Positions 262 to 12,556 are shown, counted from the stretch's first letter. The stretch: 14,786 nt of DNA from Promethearchaeota archaeon (GCA_048938895.1 JBHLLU010000079.1:1-14786); one strand, 5' to 3'. Notes: a model not told the origin generated them from the sequence alone. Translations and numbers: made by a program.

Positions 262-1896
262 ATGCTTTCAGATGATTATCTTTTTTCAAATATCGGTATT
301 GACAGTTTTGGATTCTACGCTCCCAAGCATTTTGTAAAACTTGAAGAACTTGCTTTAAAAAGAGGTGTTGATCCAGCCAAATATTCTAAGGGTCTTTTAT
401 CCAAAGAAATGAGAGTTGTTGATGTGGATGAAGATGTAATTTCTTTAGGTCTTAAAGCAGGATATAACGCTCTACAGAGAGGAAACATAAATCCTAAGAG
501 TATTGATGCTTTATTCGTAGGGACAGAAACGGAAGTATATTCCGCTAAGAGTATTTCGAATATATTCGCTGAAATGCTCGAAATTTCACCGAATGCTTTT
601 ACTCAGGACACATATAATGCTTGTGCTGGTGGGACTCTTGCGATTATAAATGCAATTGCAATGATTCAGAAAGAAATTATTGAAAAAGCACTTGTTATAA
701 GTGCAGACATATCTAGATACCATCTAGGCTCTCCTGGTGAACCTACCCAAGGTTCAGGTGCGATCGGTCTTGTAATTTCGAAAAATCCAAGGATCGCAGT
801 ATTTAGCCACAAATTTGGAAAAATCTCGGGAAATGTAAATGATTTTTTCAGACCTGCAAATGAAATTAATGCGAAGGCTTTTGGGGATTATTCTCAAAGT
901 GCTTATATAGACTTCCAATTGAAAGCTTACGATGATTTAGTTAAAAACATTGGAGATTTTCATGCTGATTTTTATACATTTCACGCCCCTTTTTCAAAAT
1001 TACCCTTAAAAATTATGCAACAAATTATTTTAAAGCGCTGGATTGGGCATATTAGCGATTTACCTAAATTTGAAAAAAATCGATTTAGATCATCAATTCT
1101 AAAAAAAATTGATTCCTTTCTGCATGATGTTACTGTTTTACCAGAATATCTTTATTTAAAACTAAATGAGAGAGGTTTTACCTCATCAACGTTAGAAAGA
1201 TTATCAGACTGGGTAAATACTAACATAAAAGCGCGAGTACTACCACAATTACGAGTACCAATGCATTTTGGTAATATGTATAATGCTGCAATATGGGCAC
1301 AAATTGTATATCTAATTGAAAATCATGCTCACGTTAACGATTTAATTTATTTCGGTTCATATGGTTCTGGAGCTACATGTATTTCTGGATTACTTAAAAT
1401 CCAACCAGGATTTAAGGAAACTGCTAAAGTAAAACCATTTATTGATGATTTTATTCATTTAAAGAAAAAGCAAAGTATATTAGAATATGAACTCATTAAA
1501 AATGGTGATGTGAAACCAATAATATTATTAGGAAAAATTACAGAACATGAATTAAATAAAAAAAGGGGTTTTACTCTTTATTTCTGTGATGAAGGATGCA
1601 TAATTCCTAATATTAGTGGATTAAATCATTGTCCTAAAGGACATTCTGGATTTCATAAACGTTTTTTTCCATTGTTTGCAAAATTAACATCAGAACCTAT
1701 TGCTCAAAATGAATTTGATGACCTAAAATATCTGAAAAAAGGTTTAGTTAGGGTTGCAGGCAATGTTAGCAAAGGTAATGCTTTAGAATATGAAATAAGA
1801 AGAGTAGAGACAGAAAATGAACCAAATTTTAATGCGAAAGGATTACTAAATTGGTGCCCCATTTATATAGCAATTCCTGAGCACCATATTTATTGA
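262..1896 (+). CDS. mvaS: Hydroxymethylglutaryl-CoA synthase with C-terminal Zn-ribbon/OB-fold (DUF35-like) extension
   Basis: 544 aa ORF. Catalytic triad in context: Glu89 (VGTET), Cys121 (NACAGGT), His241 (FHAPFSK). Also GEPTQGSGA, GNMY and SYGSG motifs and an N-terminal GIDSFGFYAP...RGVDPAKY typical of HMGS. AAGGAA lies just upstream of the ATG. First gene of the MVA cluster. Confidence 0.93.
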   Translation: MLSDDYLFSNIGIDSFGFYAPKHFVKLEELALKRGVDPAKYSKGLLSKEMRVVDVDEDVISLGLKAGYNALQRGNINPKSIDALFVGTETEVYSAKSISNIFAEMLEISPNAFTQDTYNACAGGTLAIINAIAMIQKEIIEKALVISADISRYHLGSPGEPTQGSGAIGLVISKNPRIAVFSHKFGKISGNVNDFFRPANEINAKAFGDYSQSAYIDFQLKAYDDLVKNIGDFHADFYTFHAPFSKLPLKIMQQIILKRWIGHISDLPKFEKNRFRSSILKKIDSFLHDVTVLPEYLYLKLNERGFTSSTLERLSDWVNTNIKARVLPQLRVPMHFGNMYNAAIWAQIVYLIENHAHVNDLIYFGSYGSGATCISGLLKIQPGFKETAKVKPFIDDFIHLKKKQSILEYELIKNGDVKPIILLGKITEHELNKKRGFTLYFCDEGCIIPNISGLNHCPKGHSGFHKRFFPLFAKLTSEPIAQNEFDDLKYLKKGLVRVAGNVSKGNALEYEIRRVETENEPNFNAKGLLNWCPIYIAIPEHHIY

Positions 1897-1966
1897 TTCT
1901 ATTTCAGTCTATTATTCAAATTATGATTTCGAGATCTCTCTCAATCTTATTAGTTCCTTGGGGATT

Positions 1967-1980
1967 GAAAAAGTTTTAAT
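1967..1980 (+). promoter_or_regulatory. Possible archaeal BRE/TATA promoter for mvaD-mvaA
   Basis: GAAAAAGTTTTAAT ends about 30 nt upstream of ATG 2010 in a 113 nt gap. The AT-rich background makes this weak. Confidence 0.35.
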
Positions 1981-2009
1981 CCAAGAATTAAATGATATTA
2001 AAAACTTGA

Positions 2010-3221
2010 ATGATAATGAAAAATTTTATCTCAAACGGTCTAATTTCTAAATTACATGAAGATCATAACAATATCCTTCAATATTTAATTGAGAGGAATT
2101 ATGAACTTCAAGATCTTCCACTAAGAAATACTTATCTACAAGAACAAGGTGAAGCTTATACTTTAGCATACCCTATTCAAGGGATCTTAAAGTATCATGG
2201 AATAGTGAATCCAAAGCATAAAATTCCATACTTTCCTAGCATTTCTTTAAATAATGATTGTGGATTTACAGTTTCTTATTTGAAATTCGATAAAGGTTTT
2301 AAAGAAGATCAAGTCATTCTTAATGGAGAATGTGCTTCAAAGGCAGATTCGGAACGAGTTAAGTTTACACTAGACTTCATTCGAAATTATTCTGAAATAA
2401 ATACTAAAGCTATCTTAGTCTCTCGAAATTTTTTAAAAGATAATAGTGAAGGTTATATTGGTAAGGGTCTTGGGACTTCAGCATCAGGATCTTCAGCCCT
2501 TGCTTTAGCAGCAGCCTCTATCGTATATAATAATAATGAAAATTATGTGATGAATAAAAGATTGATAAGTATATTTTCAAGATACCTTGCCTGCTCCGGG
2601 GCTCGTAGTGCAGTAGGGGGTTTTTCTCTATTACTCAGTCATCCAAGTATTAATCCATTTGATAGTTATGCTATTAGGTTAGATCGTAGTGAAAATCAAT
2701 CGTTTTTAGAAAATATTTCTTTATTGACAATACCAATGAAATCTGATTTAAAAACTCATCAAGCTCATGAAATTGCCCCAAGATCGTCTTTTTTTCCTAC
2801 TTGGTTGAAACAAAGGAAAAAATTGATCTTCGAATTTTTTAATGCATTAAAGAATTCTGATTTGAATAAAATAGGGGAACTAGCCGAATATGATACATTA
2901 TGTCTACATTCCGTAATAATGTCTGTAAGAAATAATAATATTATCGCTTGGGATCCAAATACATTAAAAGTTATGCATAAAATTCGTGATCTACGCAAAA
3001 ATCATGGTTATAATGTTTATTATTCAATTGACACTGGACCCTCAATAGTCCTATTAACTATTGAAAATGAAAAAAAAAGAATAATTAATGAATTGAAAAA
3101 TATTATCCCTGAATATTTAATAATAGAAGGCAAAATTGGTGGGCCTTCCAGAATAATTTCTCCTAATTCCTCAGAATCTAGGAAATTAAAAGAGGATATT
3201 GAAAAATTTAATAAGTTTTAG
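2010..3221 (+). CDS. mvaD: Phosphomevalonate decarboxylase (haloarchaea/Chloroflexi type; MvaD/GHMP family)
   Basis: AYPIQGILKYHG...IPYFPSIS matches the recalled PMD signature (AHPIQGLVKYHG...PYHDSIS) rather than the diphospho-enzyme NIALIKYWGK. Also GHMP loop GLGTSASG, SGARSAVGGFS, KTHQAH, LAEYDTL, YYSIDTGPS and GGP near the C-terminus. Confidence 0.88.
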   Translation: MIMKNFISNGLISKLHEDHNNILQYLIERNYELQDLPLRNTYLQEQGEAYTLAYPIQGILKYHGIVNPKHKIPYFPSISLNNDCGFTVSYLKFDKGFKEDQVILNGECASKADSERVKFTLDFIRNYSEINTKAILVSRNFLKDNSEGYIGKGLGTSASGSSALALAAASIVYNNNENYVMNKRLISIFSRYLACSGARSAVGGFSLLLSHPSINPFDSYAIRLDRSENQSFLENISLLTIPMKSDLKTHQAHEIAPRSSFFPTWLKQRKKLIFEFFNALKNSDLNKIGELAEYDTLCLHSVIMSVRNNNIIAWDPNTLKVMHKIRDLRKNHGYNVYYSIDTGPSIVLLTIENEKKRIINELKNIIPEYLIIEGKIGGPSRIISPNSSESRKLKEDIEKFNKF

Positions 3222-3237
3222 AAATGTGAATTATAAT

Positions 3238-4518
3238 ATGAAAGAACTGCGTTCAGATATCTCAGGATTTTATAAGTTATCATTAGAAGAGCGTCAACAA
3301 AAAATATCACAAATACTTAACCTCTCAAAAGAGGATGTTAATATTTTAAAAAATTTAGGATATTTTACTTCAGGACAGATTGACACTTTAATTGAAAATG
3401 TAATTGGGAGTTATCAATTACCATTTGGTTTAGCTTTTAATTTTAAAATAAATAAAAGGGACTATATTATCCCCATGGTTATTGAAGAACCCTCTGTCGT
3501 TGCAGCAGCTTCAAATGCAGCAAAATTTGCTAGAAAATATGGAGGATTTACATCAGAAAATGTTAAGTCTATAATGATTTCACAAATCCAAATAACCCAA
3601 ATAGACAATATTGACTATGTGAAAAATCAAATATTAGACAATAAAGACAAAATATTAAGAATCGCAAATGAGCAAGATCCATTGTTAAATGAATTAGGTG
3701 GTGGTGCACTCGAATTGGAACTTCGGGAACTAAATACAAGGAAGGGTAAGATGCTGATAATACATTTGTTAGTTAATGTTCTAGATGCCATGGGTGCTAA
3801 CGTTGTTAATACTATGGCAGAAGCAGTAAGTCCTTTCATTGAGGAAATAACAAATGGAAAAATATATCTACGTATATTGTCAAATTTGGCAACACATAGA
3901 ATAGCAAAAAGTAAAGCAACTTTTGATAAAGATTTATTAGGTGGTCCAGAAATTGTGGAAGGAATATTAAATGCATATGAATTTGCAGTAGCTGATCCTT
4001 ATCGTGCCACTACTCATAACAAGGGTATAATGAACGGGATTGTTGCTTTAACCTTAGCAACAGGAAATGATACTCGCGCAATAGAATCAGGTGCTCATGC
4101 ATATGCTTCCTTGAGTGGAAAATATTCTCCATTGACAAAATTTGAAATAGACTCAAAAGGTAATTTAGTGGGGGAAATTGAAGTCCCTCTGGCTTTAGGG
4201 ATCATAGGCGGGATGACAAAAATCCATCCAATGGCGCGTTTAGCATTAAAAATCTTAAATGTAAAAAGTGCTAATGAGCTCTCTCAGGTAGGTGCTGCTC
4301 TTGGTTTAGCTCAAAATGTTGCAGCATTAAGAGCCTTAGCCTCAGAAGGGATTCAAAAAGGTCATATGGCACTTCATTCTCGAAATATTGCAAAGATTGC
4401 TGGAGTGCCAGATAATTTAATAGAAAAAGTTGCGAAAAAAATGATTGAAGATAAAAAAATTAGAGTTGATTATGCAAAAGAAATCTTAAAGAAAATGAAT
4501 GAAGGTGAAAACCTTTAG
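3238..4518 (+). CDS. mvaA: HMG-CoA reductase, class II
   Basis: SGFYKLSLEER, IENVIG, EEPSVVAAASNAAK, DAMGANVVNT, RILSNL, DPYRATTHNKGIMNG, GNDTRAIESGAHAYA and GIQKGHMALH are class II signatures. ATG 3238 is preferred over the track's TTG 3199, which overlaps mvaD. Confidence 0.96.
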   Translation: MKELRSDISGFYKLSLEERQQKISQILNLSKEDVNILKNLGYFTSGQIDTLIENVIGSYQLPFGLAFNFKINKRDYIIPMVIEEPSVVAAASNAAKFARKYGGFTSENVKSIMISQIQITQIDNIDYVKNQILDNKDKILRIANEQDPLLNELGGGALELELRELNTRKGKMLIIHLLVNVLDAMGANVVNTMAEAVSPFIEEITNGKIYLRILSNLATHRIAKSKATFDKDLLGGPEIVEGILNAYEFAVADPYRATTHNKGIMNGIVALTLATGNDTRAIESGAHAYASLSGKYSPLTKFEIDSKGNLVGEIEVPLALGIIGGMTKIHPMARLALKILNVKSANELSQVGAALGLAQNVAALRALASEGIQKGHMALHSRNIAKIAGVPDNLIEKVAKKMIEDKKIRVDYAKEILKKMNEGENL

Positions 4519-4595
4519 TTTTATAAAAAGTGGTTCTTTAACTCCTCTAAGAAAAACCACTATGTTATTTATTATATCAAGATAAACAAGCAAGG

Positions 4596-5912
4596 ATGAA
4601 TAATTTTATGGGATTTAGAGAATATATAGAAAGAATAAGTAATGAAGGAATTCTTCGAAATGTTAATCTAGAAGTTTCACGGAAATTAGAAATTTCTGGA
4701 ATTTTAAAAGAAATCGAACCGACTCCTGTAATTTTTAATAATGTGAAAGAATCTGAATTTCGGGTGGTTGGAAATGTGTTTTGTACAAAGAATGTTATTG
4801 CTTCTTATTTTGGGGTCACTACTGCCGATCTTATACCAATGCTTTCAGAAGCGATCGAAAAACGCTCTGAACCAGAAATTGTATCTAAAGCTCCATGCCA
4901 AGAAATTGTTGAATCTGAAGTAGATTTAGACAAAATTCCAATTTTATTTCATTGTGAGAAGGATGGAGGAAATTACATCAGTTCTGCAGTTTGTGTTACG
5001 AGAGATCCTGAATATGGACAGAACTTAGATTTTCATCGAGCAATGCAATTCTCAAAAGATAGTTTTGCGACTCGTATAGTAAAAGGTCGTCATTTTTCTA
5101 GATTTTTAGAAAAAAATGGGGAATTGGAAGTAGCTTTTTGTATAGGTAATACGCCTAACATTTTGATCGCGGGAGCAACTTCAGTAGATATTGGAGTAGA
5201 TGAGTTACATATCGCTAATGCATTAGAACCAATTAAAATAGTAAAAGCAAAATCAGTTGATCTTTTGATACCTGCAGAAGCAGAATTTATCTTAGAAGGT
5301 CGTGTTTATTTAGAACAAAGACATTCTGAAGGTCCTTTTGTTGATTTGACAGAAACATATGATACAATAAGGGAAGAGCCGATATTTGAAGTTAAAACGA
5401 TTACTCATCGAAAAGATGCAATATGGCAAGCTTTACTACCAGGGGCCCTTGAACATAAAATATTGATGGGTATGCCACGTGAACCAACTATCTTTAAAAA
5501 AGTAAATGAAAATGGAGTAAAATGCTTAGATGTAAACGTTAATCCCGGTGGTTGTTCTTGGCTCCACGCAATAGTTCAGATTGATAAAGAAAACGAAGAT
5601 GATGGAAAAAAAGCAATAGATGGCGCATTTGCTGGTCATACTAGTTGCAAACATGTATTTATTGTAGATAAAGATATTGATATATATGATCCTTTATCTG
5701 TAGAATGGGCTATGGCAACTCGTTTTCAAGGAGATACTCGAATGGTAATAAAAGATAAAGAACCAGGTAGTAGTTTAGACCCCAGTGCTGAACCTGGAAC
5801 AAAAATGACAACTAAAATAGGGTTTGACCTTACTAAACCCCTTATGGTGAGAGGAAAGAGTTTTGATTTAGCAGAATTTCCTAAAATCGATGTGGATAAA
5901 TATTTAAACTAA
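4596..5912 (+). CDS. ubiD: UbiD-family prFMN-dependent decarboxylase, by context trans-anhydromevalonate 5-phosphate decarboxylase (AMPD)
   Basis: UbiD motifs: EKDGGNYI, DFHRAM, AEFILEG, EGPFVD (catalytic Glu), VDKDIDIYD..VEWAMATRFQ, GSSLDPS, TKIGFDLT. Directly upstream of both AcnX subunits. Alternative start at ATG 4608. Confidence 0.92.
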   Translation: MNNFMGFREYIERISNEGILRNVNLEVSRKLEISGILKEIEPTPVIFNNVKESEFRVVGNVFCTKNVIASYFGVTTADLIPMLSEAIEKRSEPEIVSKAPCQEIVESEVDLDKIPILFHCEKDGGNYISSAVCVTRDPEYGQNLDFHRAMQFSKDSFATRIVKGRHFSRFLEKNGELEVAFCIGNTPNILIAGATSVDIGVDELHIANALEPIKIVKAKSVDLLIPAEAEFILEGRVYLEQRHSEGPFVDLTETYDTIREEPIFEVKTITHRKDAIWQALLPGALEHKILMGMPREPTIFKKVNENGVKCLDVNVNPGGCSWLHAIVQIDKENEDDGKKAIDGAFAGHTSCKHVFIVDKDIDIYDPLSVEWAMATRFQGDTRMVIKDKEPGSSLDPSAEPGTKMTTKIGFDLTKPLMVRGKSFDLAEFPKIDVDKYLN

Positions 5913-5926
5913 AGGTGTAGTGATTT

Positions 5927-7120
5927 ATGAAGTTAACAACCGAAGAGCAAGACATGCTAGATGGTAAGTTTGGAAAAGCGGCTCAGAAGTCGATGGAAAT
6001 ATTAACCACTTTAGGTGAAATCTTTGATGCTGAATGCATGATAAATGTTACCGGTGTTCAGATAGCTGGAGTTTCATATGAAAATCTCGGAGAAGCAGGT
6101 TTGGAGTTTTTAAGTGAAATGGCAGAAGATGGAAGAGTTAGAGTTCTAACGACTTTGAATCCTGCTGGAATGGATCGCGAAAATTGGGAAACTCTGGGGA
6201 TTGATAAAGAATTTGCAAAAAATCAGAATCGTGCTATAGATGCGTTCGCAAAGATGGGTATTATTACCACCTGTTCTTGCACACCATATTTAATTGGACA
6301 TACACCTCATTATGGTCAGCACCTAGCATGGGCAGAAAGTAGCGCTGTGTGTTATGCTAATTCGGTTATTGGTGCTCGAACAAATCGTGAAGGGGGTCCT
6401 AGCGCATTAGCAGCAGCAATTACAGGGAAAACCCCAATGTATGGATACCATTTAGAAGAAAACCGTCATGGTGAAGTATTTATTGAAGTAAATGCTCAAG
6501 TTAAAGGAACTGATGAATTTGGTGTCTTGGGAAAACTAATAGGGGATAAACTAGTTGAATTAGGCAAAAAAATTCCATATATCACTGGAATTTCAAATGC
6601 TACAGTTGAGGAATTAAAATCCTTCTGTGCTTCTGTAGCAACTTATGGAGGTACTGCTTTATTTCATATGGAAGAAATAACCCCAGAATATAATAACTAT
6701 CCTAAACCGGAGAAAATTTCTTTTGAAATCACTCAAGATGACCTAAAAAAATCACGCTCTGAACTGATTGATGAGGATCTTGAAATAAATTTTATCAGTA
6801 TTGGTTGTCCTCATGCTTCGATTCATGAAATTGCTAAAATTGCTAATTTATTGAATGGAAAAAAGGTAAAAAAAGAATTTTGGATTACGACAGCACGACC
6901 TACAAAAAGGATAGCCGATGAAGCTGGATATTCAAAAATAATAGAAGATGCTGGCGCAAAATTTGCTGCGGATACTTGTTGTGTAGTTGCACCCATCAAA
7001 GGACGATTTAAAGGAATAATGGTAGACTCAGCAAAAGCGTGTTATTACGGTCGTGCGAAAAATCAATTTAAAGTAAAAATTGGCTCTATTGAAAAGTGTA
7101 TAGAGGAGGCAATAAAATGA
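5927..7120 (+). CDS. Aconitase X catalytic subunit (DUF521); phosphomevalonate dehydratase large subunit
   Basis: MKLTTEEQDMLDG start, QIAGVSY, TTLNPAGMD, SCTPY, WAESSAVCYANSVIGARTNREGGPSALAAA, IGCPH and DTCCVVAP, including the candidate Fe-S Cys ligands. AGGTG SD-like element at 5913-5917. Confidence 0.94.
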   Translation: MKLTTEEQDMLDGKFGKAAQKSMEILTTLGEIFDAECMINVTGVQIAGVSYENLGEAGLEFLSEMAEDGRVRVLTTLNPAGMDRENWETLGIDKEFAKNQNRAIDAFAKMGIITTCSCTPYLIGHTPHYGQHLAWAESSAVCYANSVIGARTNREGGPSALAAAITGKTPMYGYHLEENRHGEVFIEVNAQVKGTDEFGVLGKLIGDKLVELGKKIPYITGISNATVEELKSFCASVATYGGTALFHMEEITPEYNNYPKPEKISFEITQDDLKKSRSELIDEDLEINFISIGCPHASIHEIAKIANLLNGKKVKKEFWITTARPTKRIADEAGYSKIIEDAGAKFAADTCCVVAPIKGRFKGIMVDSAKACYYGRAKNQFKVKIGSIEKCIEEAIK

Positions 7121-7506
7121 AATTTTCAGGAAGAACAATTTATAAGGGAATTGCTGAAGCAGAAGCTATAGTCACTAAAGACGGGATCTCTTTTTACGGT
7201 GGTGTTGACCCGGATACCGGAAAAGTTGTTGAAGTGGGTCATGAGCTTGAAGGTCAAACAGTATCGGGAAAGATTTTGGTGTTTCCAACCGGTAAGGGTT
7301 CAACAGTGGGATCCTATACTATGTATAGAATGAAGAAGAATAAGACTGCACCTGCTGCAATTGTAAATAAAGAGATTGATACAATTATAGCGGTTGGGTG
7401 TATAATAAGTGAAATTCCTTGTGTTGATAAGATAGATATTGATCATCTAAAAACAGGTCAAAAATTATTTGTTAACGGTTCAGACGGCACAGTAGAGGTA
7501 AAGTAG
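7117..7506 (+). CDS. Aconitase X swivel subunit (DUF126); phosphomevalonate dehydratase small subunit
   Basis: ISFYGGVDPDTG, GKILVFPTGKGSTVGSY (catalytic Ser motif) and APAAIV. The ATG at 7117 overlaps the upstream stop (ATGA) and follows GAGGAGG at 7103-7109, so it is preferred to GTG 7096. Confidence 0.94.
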   Translation: MKFSGRTIYKGIAEAEAIVTKDGISFYGGVDPDTGKVVEVGHELEGQTVSGKILVFPTGKGSTVGSYTMYRMKKNKTAPAAIVNKEIDTIIAVGCIISEIPCVDKIDIDHLKTGQKLFVNGSDGTVEVK

Positions 7507-8442
7507 ATGGGTCTAGGGAAGGGATTTGGGAAAACAATCCTATTCGGGGAACATTTTGTTGTGTATGGCTTACCAGCAATAGCATCAGCTTTAGAAGCTT
7601 ACACAACAGCAGAGGTTAAGATCGTCGAAGGAAATGGATGGGTTATGAACGATCAAAGATCAGCTACCCCAGGATATAAAGAAAAGAAATATGATGAAGC
7701 ATTACAATCTATACAAAATGTCATTGAATATTTAGATATTGATACAAGAGATCAAAAACTTGAAATTAGATTTGAAGGCAATTTAATTGCTGCCAGTGGC
7801 GTTGGTGCTTCAGCTGCCCAATGTACTTCTTTAGCTCGGGCATTAAATGATACATTTAACCTTAAATTGGATGACGAACAAATTAACGATGCAGCATATG
7901 AAGGAGAAAAAGCATACCACGGCACACCCTCTGGTATTGATAATACAGCCTCAACCTATGGTGGGTTGATATGGTTCAAAAAGAATTTAGCAGGGGGCAA
8001 AAATACTATGAATCTTATGCAGGCTTCAAAAAAAATGTATCTTGTAATTGCAAATTCAGGAATCACAGCATCAACAACAGAAGTAGTTGCTGATGTTAAA
8101 CGTCTAAAACAGGAAAATCCTAATAAATTCCTAAAGATTTTTCAAGACTATGAAAAAATAGCTGAAGAGGCGAAGAATGTCCTTTTAAAAGGAGAAACAA
8201 AATCCTTAGGAAATTTAATGAATCAAAACCACATACTTTTACAAAAAATTACTGTATCAGGAGAGGTGAATGATTTATTGGTTGATTTAGCCAAGGGAAA
8301 TGGGGCGTTGGGAGCTAAAATGACGGGCACTGGGAGGGGTGGTTTAGTCATTGCTTTAGCAGAAAATCAAAAATCTCAGAATAAAATTGCTAAAGCCATC
8401 AGAAAAAAAGGATATGATGCTTGGAAAACCATGATTGGATAA
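7507..8442 (+). CDS. mvk: Mevalonate kinase
   Basis: GKTILFGEHFVVYG, GHMP loop SGVGASAA, EKAYHGTPSGIDN and GAKMTGTGRGG. The ATG directly abuts the upstream TAG. Confidence 0.95.
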   Translation: MGLGKGFGKTILFGEHFVVYGLPAIASALEAYTTAEVKIVEGNGWVMNDQRSATPGYKEKKYDEALQSIQNVIEYLDIDTRDQKLEIRFEGNLIAASGVGASAAQCTSLARALNDTFNLKLDDEQINDAAYEGEKAYHGTPSGIDNTASTYGGLIWFKKNLAGGKNTMNLMQASKKMYLVIANSGITASTTEVVADVKRLKQENPNKFLKIFQDYEKIAEEAKNVLLKGETKSLGNLMNQNHILLQKITVSGEVNDLLVDLAKGNGALGAKMTGTGRGGLVIALAENQKSQNKIAKAIRKKGYDAWKTMIG

Positions 8443-9274
8443 GAGAGAGGTAAAATTGAAAAAAGAAAATGAAGTTATTCTATTAAAACTAGGTGGCGGC
8501 TTATTAACCGATAAAGATAAACCCTTGTTTATTAGAGAAGATATCGCAAAGAGCGTAATTCAACAAATAGTCAAAGCAAATGAAAAAGTAATTCTGATTC
8601 ATGGTGGTGGTTCTTTTGGGCATCCTCTAGCAAAAAAATATGATCTCATGAAAGGATTAGATCCCTCTATTTCCAATCAAATTTTTGGATTAACAGAAAC
8701 CCATCAAGCTATGGTTAATTTTAATTCTTACTTAGTTAATTTATTTCTTGAACGAAATTATCCTGCATTATCAATTCAACCCTCGAGTATTTTTAAAAAG
8801 GATAACAGGAAAATTACAATCATTAATATCAAGCTCATTGAAGATTTATTAGCTTTTAACATCCTTCCTATATTATATGGAGATATTATATTTGAAAATC
8901 ACACATCATTTTCGATATTATCTGGAGATCAAATTATCTTTAAGTTATGTGAAAAATTGAATAATTATCGGGTTTCGAAAGTTATATTCGCTATTGAAGT
9001 TGATGGATTATTTGTCAATGAAAAGGATCCTAAAAATAAAAAAATTAAACTAGTATCTGAGATACTTTCAAGCGAATTAGTTAATTTAGATTTAGCAGAT
9101 TTAGGAAAAAAAATAGACGTAACAGGTGGAATTCAAGGTAAAATTAACTCAATAAAAAAAATTTGTGCTTTCAAAATTCCAGTACAAATTGTTAATGGAC
9201 TTAAAGAAAATAATATATATAAATCGTTAAAGAATGAAAAAGTAATTAGTACCTATATAAAAATTAAGAACTAA
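8435..9274 (+). CDS. ipk: Isopentenyl phosphate kinase (amino-acid kinase family)
   Basis: LKLGGGLLTDK, IHGGGSFGH (IPK-specific His), PILYGD, ILSGD and DVTGGIQGK. Lies between mvk and fni and overlaps mvk by 8 nt. The start codon (TTG) is uncertain. Confidence 0.92.
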   Translation: MDKREVKLKKENEVILLKLGGGLLTDKDKPLFIREDIAKSVIQQIVKANEKVILIHGGGSFGHPLAKKYDLMKGLDPSISNQIFGLTETHQAMVNFNSYLVNLFLERNYPALSIQPSSIFKKDNRKITIINIKLIEDLLAFNILPILYGDIIFENHTSFSILSGDQIIFKLCEKLNNYRVSKVIFAIEVDGLFVNEKDPKNKKIKLVSEILSSELVNLDLADLGKKIDVTGGIQGKINSIKKICAFKIPVQIVNGLKENNIYKSLKNEKVISTYIKIKN

Positions 9275-9289
9275 CATATCTTATTAGAA

Positions 9290-10408
9290 ATGACTCAAAT
9301 AGAGAGAAAAAATATGTCAAAGGAGAATGATTCTAATAAAATAATGGAAAGAAAGTTAGAACATATCAAAATACCATTAGAGTATGATGTTCAACATTCT
9401 AAAAATTATTTTAGTGATATTAAATTAATCCATTACCCAATTCCAGACATAGATTTTGATGAAATTGATCTTACAGCAGAATTTTTTGAGAAAACTATTT
9501 CTGCTCCCATTTGTATTTCGGCTATAACAGGTGGACATCCCGTTTCAAAAGAGATCAATGAAATATTGGCAAAAGCAGCAGAAGAAGAAAACATAATTAT
9601 GAGTGTGGGAAGTCAACGGGCTGGTCTTGAAGATCCAAATCTATTAGACTCATTTAAAATTACCCGTCAAGTCGCTCCTACTATCCCAATCATTGGCAAT
9701 ATAGGAATTGGACAAGTTAGTGATATTAATTTTGATGTAGAGGATTTTAATAAATGCATAGAAATGGTTAAAGCTGATGTAATGGCAATTCACTTGAATA
9801 TATTACACGAATTGGTGCAGGATAAAGGAGATATATCATATAGACTTTTTCGAAAGAATTTCCAAAAGATCCGAGAAATGTATGATATTCCAATAATTGC
9901 AAAAGAAGTAGGAACTGGCTTCAACCAAGATTTAGCTCTTAACCTTGATAGACTTGGTTTTGATGGCTTTGACATTGGAGGAACAGGAGGAACTAGTTTT
10001 GCCGCAATTGAATCAAAACGTAAAAATTTCAACAATCAGCGATTTACTCGAGATCCATCAATAGTATTTAGGGAATGGGGTATCCCTACACCAGTAAGTG
10101 TTATTTATGTTAGAAAGGTCTCTCAAAAGCTTATAATTGCTACTGGGGGATTAAGAACTGGAATTGATATTGCTAAATCTATTGCACTTGGAGCAGATAT
10201 AGGTGGATTTGCATATAATTTTCTCCAATCAGCATGGAAAGATAGAAAAAATAATTCTATATCTCATACTGTTAAAGAAATAAGAACTCTAAAGAATGAG
10301 TTGAGATCGTGTTTATGGTTGATGAATTTAGATGAGATTGGAGAATTAAAAGGCAAAAGAGATAAATATGTTGTTCTAGGAAGCTTATATCGATGGTTAC
10401 ATCAATGA
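9290..10408 (+). CDS. fni: Isopentenyl-diphosphate delta-isomerase type 2 (FMN-dependent)
   Basis: RKLEHI, ISAITGG, VGSQR, GNIG, HLN, KEVGTG, GGTSFAAIE, EWGIPT and ATGGLRTGIDIAKSIALGA. The true start may be a later in-frame ATG. Confidence 0.95.
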   Translation: MTQIERKNMSKENDSNKIMERKLEHIKIPLEYDVQHSKNYFSDIKLIHYPIPDIDFDEIDLTAEFFEKTISAPICISAITGGHPVSKEINEILAKAAEEENIIMSVGSQRAGLEDPNLLDSFKITRQVAPTIPIIGNIGIGQVSDINFDVEDFNKCIEMVKADVMAIHLNILHELVQDKGDISYRLFRKNFQKIREMYDIPIIAKEVGTGFNQDLALNLDRLGFDGFDIGGTGGTSFAAIESKRKNFNNQRFTRDPSIVFREWGIPTPVSVIYVRKVSQKLIIATGGLRTGIDIAKSIALGADIGGFAYNFLQSAWKDRKNNSISHTVKEIRTLKNELRSCLWLMNLDEIGELKGKRDKYVVLGSLYRWLHQ

Positions 10409-10785
10409 ATATCTTCTAGTGAATCCTGAATAAGGTTTTCAAATTGAGAAAAGGCACTAAGTTGCCCTTTATAATTTTCTAACTTTATTGAATAAAGTTT
10501 TAAAAATTTCTTTGAAATTTTTTCTAATTCTCGGTTAATTTTTTTTTGTTTGAATTGTTTTGATGAATTTGCTACAAAGATTAAATCACTCTTTTTAATT
10601 AAAGTAAACCTTTTGTTATTCAATTCAAAATTAGATAAGCCGCCGTCAACCAATTCTTCGGCAAACATGTTCAATGCACTCATCATTGCCCCAAATAAAT
10701 GGGGGGACAGAGATTCATTGAAGGCTCTATGAAAAATTACAATTCCTGATTCTTTTACTATCCAAATATCCTGGAGCACCTTCAT
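10402..10785 (-). CDS. Asgard-type longin-like small protein (127 aa)
   Basis: Pattern DIWIVKESGIVIFHR...PHLFGAMMSALNMFAEE..GGLSNFEL...LIFVA...ELEKISKKFLKLY...YKGQLSAFSQF is a beta-beta-alpha-beta-beta-beta-alpha-alpha layout typical of lokiarchaeal longin-like proteins. ATG 10785 is 25 nt after the ubiX stop; the track's TTG 10851 overlaps ubiX. Confidence 0.65.
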   Translation of the reverse strand: MKVLQDIWIVKESGIVIFHRAFNESLSPHLFGAMMSALNMFAEELVDGGLSNFELNNKRFTLIKKSDLIFVANSSKQFKQKKINRELEKISKKFLKLYSIKLENYKGQLSAFSQFENLIQDSLEDIH

Positions 10786-10810
10786 TTGAAATCTTCTCTT
10801 TTCACATTTT

Positions 10811-11359
10811 CTAAGTAGAGCCCCATCGATTGATATTACTTTCAATCCCAATTTGATCTAATATTCTTCCTATGGTATAATCAATAAGCTCATCAACACT
10901 TTTTGGTTTTATATAGTAAGAAGGGATTGGTGGATATATGATCACACCTAACCTTGCCAATTTCAGCATATTTTCAAGATGAATAACACTGAATGGAGTC
11001 TCTCTGACGACCAATATTAATTTTCTTCTTTCCTTTATCATTACATCTGCAGCTCTTGAAATTAAATTATTCGCATAACCATTTGCTACTGCTGATAAGG
11101 TCTTCATTGAGCAAGGGATTATGATCATACAATCTATTTTATGAGAACCACTTGAGGGCGGTGCTAATAAATTATCAACTTCATAATTGATATCTGCTAA
11201 TTCACGAATATAAGAAACTTTATATTCTGTTTCAATGTTGATTATTTGTTCCGCAATTTTTGAAATTATTAAATCTGTCTTAATTTTCTTTTCTTTTAAT
11301 TTTTTTAATAGGTGAACAGCTAAATCAATTCCAGTTGCACCGGTAATTGCTACTAACAT
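10811..11359 (-). CDS. ubiX: Flavin prenyltransferase UbiX (prFMN synthase)
   Basis: VAITGATG, APPSSGS, IPCSMKTLSAVANGYANNLISRAADVMIKERRKLILVVRETP, HLENML and PPIPSYYIKP. An in-frame TAA lies immediately before the ATG, fixing the start. Confidence 0.96.
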   Translation of the reverse strand: MLVAITGATGIDLAVHLLKKLKEKKIKTDLIISKIAEQIINIETEYKVSYIRELADINYEVDNLLAPPSSGSHKIDCMIIIPCSMKTLSAVANGYANNLISRAADVMIKERRKLILVVRETPFSVIHLENMLKLARLGVIIYPPIPSYYIKPKSVDELIDYTIGRILDQIGIESNINRWGST

Positions 11360-11488: not shown

Positions 11489-12556
11489 TTAGAATTTTCT
11501 ATTCATAACAAAATTCAGTAGACTCTCAAAAAATTCTAATTCTGAGGAATTAATATGTGAGTTTAGATTTTCTAACGATGTAATTGCTTTTTGAAAATAA
11601 TCATATGCTAACTCTTTGCATGAACTAACTGAATCTGCTTCTGAAAACAAATCCTTAACTTCCTGAACATTTTCATTTGTCATATTTCTATTTTCTAGTA
11701 GTTGGATAAGCTTATTTCTTTTTTCGTTATTTAAATTGTTTAACGCAGTAAATTTGAGCGCAGTTAATTTATTCTCTCGAATATCACCATCAGTTGGTTT
11801 TCCAGTTACTTTTTCATCCCCGAAGGTACCTAAAATATCATCTATTATCTGAAAAATTCTCCCAAGATTGATACTATAAATAGAAAGATCTTTAAACCAC
11901 ACCTCACTTACCTGTGCATAATTTGCGCCTACTAATACTGATTTTTCAATTAATGCTCCTGTCTTTAGTGTTATCATTTCAATATAATCTGAAAGTGTTA
12001 AATTTGACCTATTTACCATATCCATTTCAATTAGAACTCCATCAGCTACTTCGATAAATGCTTGTTCATATAACTGTATTGCATTCAAATTTAACACTTT
12101 ATTGAAATCATTATTAAAATATGCTTCTAAACCCAGAAAGAAAGCAGAATCCCCCCCGATAATTCCTATTGAATTACCAAAATCTGAGGCTATCATCCTT
12201 TTTAATTTATATTTGTCATAATAATTCCTAAATCGGAAGTGAAATGCAGGGTTTCCCCTCCTAAAATCATCTTTATCAATTATATCATCATGAATTAGAG
12301 AGGCATTGTGAAGAAATTCAATACCCACACTTGGGATTATTATTTTCTCGTCGGGATTGTCCTTAAATGCATTATATGCGGCTATACATAATAAAGGACG
12401 AATTCTTTTTCCTCCTGCCAAAAAATAATCTTTTAATTCAGAATAGTAATCATTAAGAAACGGATTTTTGATGGTTAATAGTTTTCGTTTATAAATAGAT
12501 TCTATTGCCTTGTTAATTTTTTGCATGTATTTATTCACATAATCAGTAAACTTCAT
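11489..12556 (-). CDS. idsA: trans-Polyprenyl diphosphate synthase (IdsA/GGPP synthase family; chain length uncertain)
   Basis: GGKRIRP, first Asp-rich motif LIHDDIIDKDDFRRG, LKTGAL, second Asp-rich motif FQIIDDILG, and TGKPTDGDIRENK. Confidence 0.9.
   Translation of the reverse strand: MKFTDYVNKYMQKINKAIESIYKRKLLTIKNPFLNDYYSELKDYFLAGGKRIRPLLCIAAYNAFKDNPDEKIIIPSVGIEFLHNASLIHDDIIDKDDFRRGNPAFHFRFRNYYDKYKLKRMIASDFGNSIGIIGGDSAFFLGLEAYFNNDFNKVLNLNAIQLYEQAFIEVADGVLIEMDMVNRSNLTLSDYIEMITLKTGALIEKSVLVGANYAQVSEVWFKDLSIYSINLGRIFQIIDDILGTFGDEKVTGKPTDGDIRENKLTALKFTALNNLNNEKRNKLIQLLENRNMTNENVQEVKDLFSEADSVSSCKELAYDYFQKAITSLENLNSHINSSELEFFESLLNFVMNRKF

Follow-up and report, generated by a model that had tools for sequence, protein, structure and literature searches.

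A long-form MVD-family decarboxylase, probably a phosphomevalonate decarboxylase, in an archaeal-type mevalonate gene cluster of a Lokiarchaeia-type genome

Gene content of the cluster

The window considered here is the entire 14.8-kb contig C169 (14,786 nucleotides; GCA_048938895.1, JBHLLU010000079.1) of a Lokiarchaeia-type genome of a Promethearchaeota archaeon, whose assembly comprises 4.65 Mb in 174 contigs, with an estimated completeness of 98.7 % and contamination of 7.5 %. Nine co-directional open reading frames (ORFs), all of them intact and separated by short gaps or overlapping, extend from 262 to 10408 and encode, in order, an HMG-CoA synthase-like protein (HMGS), an MVD-family decarboxylase, a class II HMG-CoA reductase (HMGR), a UbiD-family decarboxylase, the large and small AcnX subunits, mevalonate kinase (MVK), isopentenyl phosphate kinase (IPK) and a type 2 isopentenyl pyrophosphate isomerase (IDI2). 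The cluster probably specifies a complete archaeal-type mevalonate (MVA) pathway together with an accessory long-form enzyme of the MVD family, probably a phosphomevalonate decarboxylase (PMD), which would provide a parallel one-enzyme route. The co-encoding of two enzymatic solutions for the conversion of mevalonate-5-phosphate to isopentenyl phosphate in one co-directional cluster, as proposed in a preliminary description of the window, is borne out by the gene content, and the ORFs named there are intact and confirmed as to family with Pfam and NCBIfam.

All the assignments pass a curated NCBIfam cut-off, with the exception of HMGS and the MVD-like protein. On the plus strand, the array begins with the HMGS-like gene (262..1896, 544 aa; PF01154 6e-22, PF08540 2e-8), which is followed by the decarboxylase (2010..3221, protein P0001 of 403 aa; PF22700, 79.7 bits) and by the NAD-type class II HMGR (3199..4518; TIGR00532, 481.2 bits against a cut-off of 259.95), the sole HMGR of the genome (a single PF00368 match). 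The end of the decarboxylase ORF overlaps the HMGR start by 23 nt, suggesting co-translation with an essential gene. Further downstream lie UbiD (4596..5912; TIGR00148, 370.6 versus 244.85), the AcnX large subunit (5927..7120; PF04412, 500 bits, 4.7e-150) and small, or swivel, subunit (7096..7506; PF01989, 120 bits, 3e-35; NF003046, 176.8 versus 163), MVK (7507..8442; TIGR00549, 234.8 versus 163.05), IPK (8435..9274; NF040647, 217.7 versus 120) and IDI2 (9290..10408; TIGR02151, 340.1 versus 281.3), while the flavin prenyltransferase UbiX is encoded on the minus strand (10811..11359; TIGR00421, 246.4 versus 108.9). The core of the pathway would thus consist of HMGS, class II HMGR, MVK, an AcnX-type dehydratase, a UbiD-type decarboxylase served by UbiX, IPK and IDI2. 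The earlier statement that the shared MVK gene lies upstream of the two routes is correct in the pathway sense but not in gene order, since the gene follows those of AcnX.

The AcnX/UbiD branch

The archaeal mevalonate pathway is said to have been originally described by Hayakawa et al. in 2018. The window resembles the Aeropyrum/Methanosarcina-type pathway in that both AcnX subunits are encoded separately and in tandem, with the three cysteines of phosphomevalonate dehydratase (PMDh), with UbiD adjacent, UbiX in the cluster, and MVK, IPK and IDI2 alongside; it differs in that an MVD-family decarboxylase is added to the same operon-like array and in that its HMGR is of class II.

Among PDB entries, the AcnX large subunit matches the TkPMDh homologue from Thermococcus kodakarensis (7cnr/7cns) at 1.2e-99, versus 2.3e-58 for hydroxyproline dehydratase. 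In the alignment to 7cnr, cysteines occupy sites A, 1 and B, and site C holds a valine. In the Aeropyrum enzyme, cysteines at the same three positions have been reported to bind the [4Fe-4S] cluster (Komeyama et al. 2023; PMC10040528), whereas in type I AcnX the third cysteine is located at site C (PMC10040528). Judged by this match and these residues, the pair is of the phosphomevalonate dehydratase type (type IIb).

UbiD has a three-domain architecture and is the only UbiD of the genome; its gene immediately precedes that of AcnX in each of the 11 loci fetched from the window's family (hereafter f1). Neither NCBIfam nor the PDB yielded a match named anhydromevalonate phosphate decarboxylase (AMPD); the best in the PDB is the UbiD-family entry 6h6x (4.9e-72), and a homologue search returned 120 Asgard proteins at 83–100 % identity that bear generic names only, with no tie to a characterized AMPD. 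Because of this lack of AMPD-named matches, the assignment of UbiD as AMPD is made from context, namely its adjacency to AcnX, its sole-copy status and its co-variation with AcnX. With respect to the latter, UbiD, UbiX above its cut-off and intact AcnX were each detected in 0/5 genomes examined from the sister families f2 and f3 (89–93 % complete). The cofactor of UbiD, prenylated flavin mononucleotide (prFMN), would be made by UbiX.

Sequence features and phylogenetic placement of the decarboxylase

The decarboxylase scores below all the equivalog cut-offs, including those for PMD (NF040704, 165.9 bits against 475), mevalonate-3,5-bisphosphate decarboxylase (abbreviated BMD or MBD; NF040847, 161.1 against 560), diphosphomevalonate decarboxylase (DMD; TIGR01240, 108.3 against 171.35) and mevalonate-3-kinase (M3K; 39 against 440). 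Two in-frame ATG codons are present at 2010–2016, and the database copy, P0002, is 401 aa long, which implies that it starts at the second of them.

Residues were mapped by HMMER alignments against the description of the enzyme PtoMBD by Aoki et al. 2022, under the assumption, deduced from four cavity residues, that a tag offsets the 7t71 chain by 20 residues. On this mapping, the catalytic aspartate of PtoMBD, Asp309 (Aoki et al. 2022; PMC9254496), aligns with D341 of the window protein. Both motifs highlighted in the preliminary description, PIQGILKYHG (residues 55–64) and DTGPS (residues 341–345), are present, and D341, H253, N140 and the P-loop K152-G153-x-G155-T156-S157-A158 are invariant among 26 clade members. 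H253 is the PMD-type histidine, located where DMD has a methionine, and the position of the DMD-specific lysine of the beta-phosphate site is occupied by isoleucine in alignments to 6n0x and 6n0z.

Aligned with labelled representatives (19 sequences in all), the window decarboxylase retains the P-loop GKGLGTSASG and S138-x-N140, as do the high-scoring PMD-like and DMD representatives, and the S-x-N motif with a Ser/Thr-rich P-loop is likewise kept in the Asgard clade, a DPANN-like long-form group and two intermediates. In contrast, four BMD-like representatives carry a glutamate-containing P-loop, GL(G/S)ES, and have lost S-x-N. The motif YPIQGxxKYHG is common to the window decarboxylase and PMD-like representatives scoring 364–454 bits on NF040704; the corresponding DMD motif is NIALIKYWGK. 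All long forms, BMD included, possess an N-terminal extension of ~50 residues and a 6–8-residue insertion before the P-loop.

The phylogenetic tree comprised 130 rows, that is, 122 proteins of 290–450 aa and 8 ORFs from fetched loci, and was built under LG+G4 by a quick search and rooted at the midpoint. The 122 proteins were drawn from the 150 best representatives of a search of 1.84 billion proteins and a few earlier matches, with shorter and longer sequences dropped, and 30 rows were labelled with NCBIfam. A short-form clade of 91 rows (SH-aLRT 100) is composed of a grade of PMD-like proteins, scoring up to 454 bits on NF040704, within which the DMD clade is nested. The window decarboxylase lies outside this clade, in a 15-row Asgard clade (SH-aLRT 99) positioned beside two other long-form groups, one of which holds BMD-like proteins (308–439 bits on NF040847). 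The earlier designation of the enzyme as a 'haloarchaea-type' PMD is therefore not tenable in phylogenetic terms, as the protein groups with long-form archaeal proteins. This placement agrees with Zhu et al. 2024 (PMC11052028), according to whom the Lokiarchaeial homologues are closer in identity to MBD than to PMD and form the sister group of the Thermoplasmatales MBD.

The enzyme thus combines traits of two known systems. With the haloarchaea/Chloroflexi-type PMD (NF040704; 6n0x, from Anaerolinea thermophila), it shares the MVD-family fold, the catalytic aspartate, the PMD-type histidine and the lack of the DMD lysine, as well as YPIQGxxKYHG, an intact GHMP P-loop with S-x-N, and MVK and IPK as genomic partners; moreover, 6n0x is the best PDB match of a profile of the 26 clade members (178.8 bits, compared with 161–169 for bacterial DMDs and 157.1 for 7t71). 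It differs from this type in its additional N-terminal residues and pre-P-loop insertion, its low NF040704 score and its position outside the short-form clade. With the Thermoplasma-type MBD (NF040847), on the other hand, it shares the long form, with both the extension and the insertion, and the KGLG motif, while differing in its retained Ser/Thr P-loop and S-x-N, its low NF040847 score and the lack of an M3K in the window genome, as far as a PF22700 scan reveals.

Distribution and turnover

A sample of 301 genomes of the phylum was surveyed with thresholds of E<=1e-89 for the long-form gene and E<=1e-10 for any MVD-family match. The long-form gene is present in 25 genomes, of which 17 belong to f1, the remainder being 7/7 of f2 and 1/1 of f3. 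AcnX was detected in 256 of the 301 (60/68 in f1, 0/7 in f2, 0/1 in f3). The two occur together in 15 genomes, all of f1, and on one contig in 14 of these 15. Any MVD-family match was found in 54 genomes, 37 of which also have AcnX.

When all 135 species genomes of f1 were screened, the long-form gene was identified in 25, a different homologue of ~343 aa in 13, weak matches in 7 and no match (E<=1e-10) in 90. The window's genus, with 54 genomes, includes 9 with the long-form gene, 12 with the different homologue, 33 with neither and none with weak matches. The arrangement is therefore recurrent and not unique, and the co-occurrence is not exceptional, given the 25 carriers in f1 and the 37 of 54 MVD-positive genomes of the phylum that encode AcnX.

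In three inspected loci from species of the window's genus, this different homologue is a 339-aa MVD-family protein with the motif KYWGN, encoded between AcnX-small and MVK (L023, G008:C87, 8360–9376; L024, G150:C223, 5419–6435; L029, G049:C10, 7706–8722). With 245.7 bits it passes the TIGR01240 cut-off of 171.35, falls inside the DMD clade of the tree, and is probably the DMD homologue without phosphomevalonate kinase (PMK) noted for the order CR-4 by Zhu et al. 2024.

In a tree built for 12 loci from eight cluster genes that they share, the three types of cluster (carrying the long-form gene, the DMD-clade gene or neither) are interspersed. G171, which has neither gene, and G008, which has the DMD-clade gene, are sisters with support of 100/100, and differ by a clean indel of ~1.2 kb holding that gene, with flanking DNA 95 % and 89 % identical. 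No relics of the long-form gene were detected by sensitive tblastn in three loci devoid of it.

The window proteins were also mapped onto 14 related loci, 11 of them of f1. The order HMGS-MVDl-HMGR2-UbiD-AcnXL-AcnXS-MVK-IPK-IDI2 recurs in four other genomes (G255, G207, G147 and G065), in the last three on contigs of 293, 106 and 137 kb, respectively. A fifth genome, G210, displays a variant order on a 793-kb contig, in which the decarboxylase gene is relocated to the slot between AcnX-small and MVK.

Function of the decarboxylase

The best guess from the protein's residues is that it is an ATP-dependent PMD, because the catalytic aspartate, the PMD-type histidine and the ATP-site motifs are kept, the latter being lost in the BMD-like clade. 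The long-form enzyme would use ATP to phosphorylate the 3-OH of mevalonate-5-phosphate and subsequently decarboxylate the product to isopentenyl phosphate. Running alongside the two-enzyme AcnX/UbiD step, such a one-enzyme route would require neither an Fe-S cluster nor prFMN but would cost one more ATP. Taking the tree into account, the protein would best be read as a PMD-like enzyme that uses ATP and belongs to the lineage from which MBD arose. The Lokiarchaeial homologues were also called PMD by Zhu et al. 2024 (PMC11052028), because M3K and mevalonate-3-phosphate 5-kinase (M3PK, or M3P5K) are absent from Lokiarchaeia metagenome-assembled genomes (MAGs).

Several observations weigh against the assignment as PMD. 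The protein is far under the PMD equivalog cut-off (165.9 versus 475), and its top PDB match as a single sequence is the ATP-independent MBD 7t71 (PtoMBD; 99.5 bits, 2.1e-27), with the Anaerolinea PMD 6n0x scoring 95.3. The N-terminal extension and the pre-P-loop insertion are common to MBD, and the insertion region borders the ATP site. The quick, midpoint-rooted LG+G4 tree leaves the order of the long-form groups unsettled. The gene evolves 3–4 times faster than those of AcnX and UbiD, and the dN/dS values are rough because dS is saturated (1.0–2.7). Finally, no published assay of any enzyme of the long-form Asgard clade was found in the literature, and the absence of M3P5K is that stated by Zhu et al. 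2024 (PMC11052028).

Of the alternatives, one holds that the decarboxylase is redundant in f1 and carries little or no flux, either as a leftover nearing loss or as an enzyme recruited for a non-MVA substrate. The absence of matches from 90 of the 135 f1 genomes, the interspersion of close relatives with and without the gene in the cluster tree, and its faster evolution are all consistent with such redundancy. Nevertheless, the ORF is intact in 25/25 carriers, with no stops within the matches, all catalytic and ATP-site residues are invariant, and the overlap with the HMGR start suggests co-translation with an essential gene. The gene is under purifying selection: its dN/dS against five relatives is 0.18–0.24, that is, about 0.2, compared with 0.15–0.26 for IPK and 0.04–0.09 for AcnX and UbiD. 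Redundancy is accordingly regarded as unlikely.

It also appears rather doubtful that the enzyme is an ATP-independent, MBD-like decarboxylase acting on mevalonate-3,5-bisphosphate supplied by a kinase that has not yet been recognized. Such an activity would fit the best single-sequence PDB match, an NF040847 alignment that begins at residue 15 and so covers the N-terminal extension, the pre-P-loop insertion, the location on the long-form side of the tree together with the BMD-like clade, and the higher identity to MBD than to PMD reported by Zhu et al. 2024 (PMC11052028). However, the S-x-N motif and Ser/Thr P-loop lost in the BMD-like representatives are kept here, the clade profile scores PMD and DMD structures above MBD, and the cluster includes both MVK and IPK. 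A PF22700 scan of the window's own genome retrieved only the decarboxylase, MVK and RFAP synthase, with no M3K-like gene, in line with the absence of M3K and M3PK from Lokiarchaeia MAGs according to Zhu et al. 2024 (PMC11052028).

A eukaryote-type branch, in which the protein would act as a DMD together with an unrecognized PMK, is very improbable. MVD-family homology and the existence of a second MVK-like GHMP paralogue on contig C170 could be cited in its favour, but the DMD lysine is absent and the PMD histidine present, TIGR01240 yields 108.3 bits against 171.35, and the protein falls outside the DMD clade. The six GHMP-N proteins of the genome correspond to MVK and its MVK-like paralogue, an HddA-like kinase, an unassigned 423-aa protein, pantoate kinase and RFAP synthase, and none of the GHMP proteins of the genome scores above 45 bits with any PMK model. 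As the long-form gene does not belong to the DMD lineage, its connection with the archaeal-to-eukaryotic transition, raised in the preliminary description, is weak. The MVK-like paralogue has 318 aa (G000:C170:32429-33382; L030 1252–2205), scores 157.1 on TIGR00549 against 163, and is ~29 % identical to the MVK of the cluster.

That the co-occurrence of the two routes is an artefact of assembly or binning is hardly conceivable despite the short contig and the 7.5 % estimated contamination, for the identical gene order in four other genomes and its variant in a fifth, on contigs as long as 793 kb, rule out a chimeric assembly, the GC content is even along the window (28–38 %), and AcnX, UbiD, HMGR and the MVD-like gene are each present in one copy in the genome, which argues against the merging of two strains.

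The dual-route pathway envisaged in the preliminary description is thus a reasonable proposal that is supported in part, by the PMDh-type AcnX and by the dN/dS of the decarboxylase, and a switch between the branches according to oxygen, iron or ATP would be plausible.

Sister families and the direction of evolution

In f2 and f3, the cluster has the order HMGS-MVDl-HMGR2-MVK-IPK, without UbiD or an intact AcnX block, and since both are missing the orthologue of the decarboxylase must link MVK to IPK there. Similarly, Zhu et al. 2024 (PMC11052028) ascribe to MK-D1 the decarboxylase route only, linking MVK to IPK. A match to AcnX (PF04412, 39.9 bits) with five in-frame stops was found in the f2 genome G165 (G165:C13:13840-14247; L040 ~7841–8248), in a 1.2-kb gap free of ORFs; it is significant by tblastn only over a 29-aa piece, and may possibly be a decayed remnant of the archaeal route.

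The identity of the long-form gene to the window copy mostly tracks genus membership. Together with the f2/f3 cluster and the possible AcnX relic, this speaks for an ancestor that possessed both routes and for their reciprocal loss thereafter, although f1 may instead have gained the AcnX/UbiD block later. With a two-route ancestor, the decarboxylase would probably have been inherited from an ancestor common to f1 and its sister family; the sister family would have kept the decarboxylase only, and the gene would have been lost repeatedly within f1, where the AcnX/UbiD route represents the stable core and the decarboxylase is dispensable.

The closest relative of the window decarboxylase, at 81 % identity (G121:C69:897-2105; L005), is binned in a different genus and located on a 3-kb contig apart from the AcnX of that genome; mis-binning or intergenus transfer is possible. 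The MVK proteins of the sister families (L025–L027; G213, G165 and G240) are 31–33 % identical to f1 MVK, compared with 51–66 % for the flanking genes. This low identity was considered as a mark of a swap of the UbiD-AcnX-MVK module, an idea that was dropped because f3 MVK shows no more than 33–42 % identity to any MVK matched in a 101-genome sample of the phylum, so that the low value is not diagnostic.

Other features of the window

The HMGS-like protein scores below all the HMGS equivalog cut-offs, the best being TIGR01835 (212.6 versus 360), and no Pfam family matched its C-terminal tail of 171 aa. It is kept at full length across the family (60–81 % identity, ~99 % coverage), and its gene occupies the same position in 13 of the 14 fetched loci, with no match in G213, while L024 ends before that gene.

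On the minus strand, a small longin-domain gene (10402–10851; PF19036, 1.6e-7) is wedged between IDI2 and UbiX; of the 11 loci fetched from the family, 6 have it next to the MVA cluster. This gene and the names borne by homologues of the window proteins assign the organism to the Lokiarchaeia/Promethearchaeota. The position of UbiX is variable: in L022 (G228), L024 (G150) and L029 (G049), its gene is inverted between HMGS and HMGR2, in the slot that the long-form decarboxylase occupies in the window. A GGPP-type polyprenyl synthase (11489..12556; PF00348, 1.8e-56) is also encoded on the minus strand, and beyond these genes lie an alpha/beta hydrolase and a GH38 fragment. Neither Rfam families nor tRNA genes were found in the window.

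Implications

PMD homologues in Lokiarchaeia and 'chimeric MVA pathways' in Asgard MAGs have been described by Zhu et al. 2024 (Microorganisms 12:707; PMC11052028). As in those sets, enzymes of two MVA variants are found here on one Asgard contig; the published examples include PMK and DMD with AMPD and AcnX on one contig in Hodarchaeales, and DMD homologues without PMK in the order CR-4. The window differs in that AcnX and AMPD are accompanied by the long-form Lokiarchaeial PMD-like gene, a combination that is not explicit in the consulted passages of Zhu et al. 2024, but that may be shown in Figures 1b and S5 or the tables of that paper. Since chimeric Asgard MVA sets are already in print, the gain is one of resolution, not discovery; what is added is the co-linear cluster, the retention of ATP motifs relative to BMD, the turnover of two non-orthologous decarboxylases within a genus, and the possible AcnX relic of the sister family.

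More tentatively, the long-form decarboxylase could be a living representative of the ATP-dependent ancestor of the Thermoplasma MBD and, in addition, a conditional, cofactor-free bypass under environment-dependent selection. A bypass of this kind would sustain the supply of isopentenyl phosphate when oxygen, or a limitation of iron or flavin, disables one of the two cofactor-dependent enzymes, the Fe-S dehydratase and the prFMN-dependent decarboxylase. Another conceivable role would be to 'prime' the archaeal route, as prFMN itself is built from a prenyl phosphate made by the pathway. Environment-dependent selection on the bypass would explain the repeated gain and loss of two non-orthologous MVD-family genes in fixed slots of an operon that is otherwise frozen, within one genus.

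Should flux pass through both branches, these Lokiarchaeia would possess a natural branched lower mevalonate pathway, in which the AcnX/UbiD branch saves ATP and depends on an Fe-S cluster and prFMN, whereas the decarboxylase branch costs ATP and is cofactor-free. The long-form enzyme may be informative as to how MBD lost the kinase half-reaction. The family as a whole, with two thirds of f1 relying on AcnX/UbiD only and a sister family that has the decarboxylase only and an apparently decayed AcnX fragment, would offer a rare intermediate state in which the replacement of one pathway variant by another may be studied.

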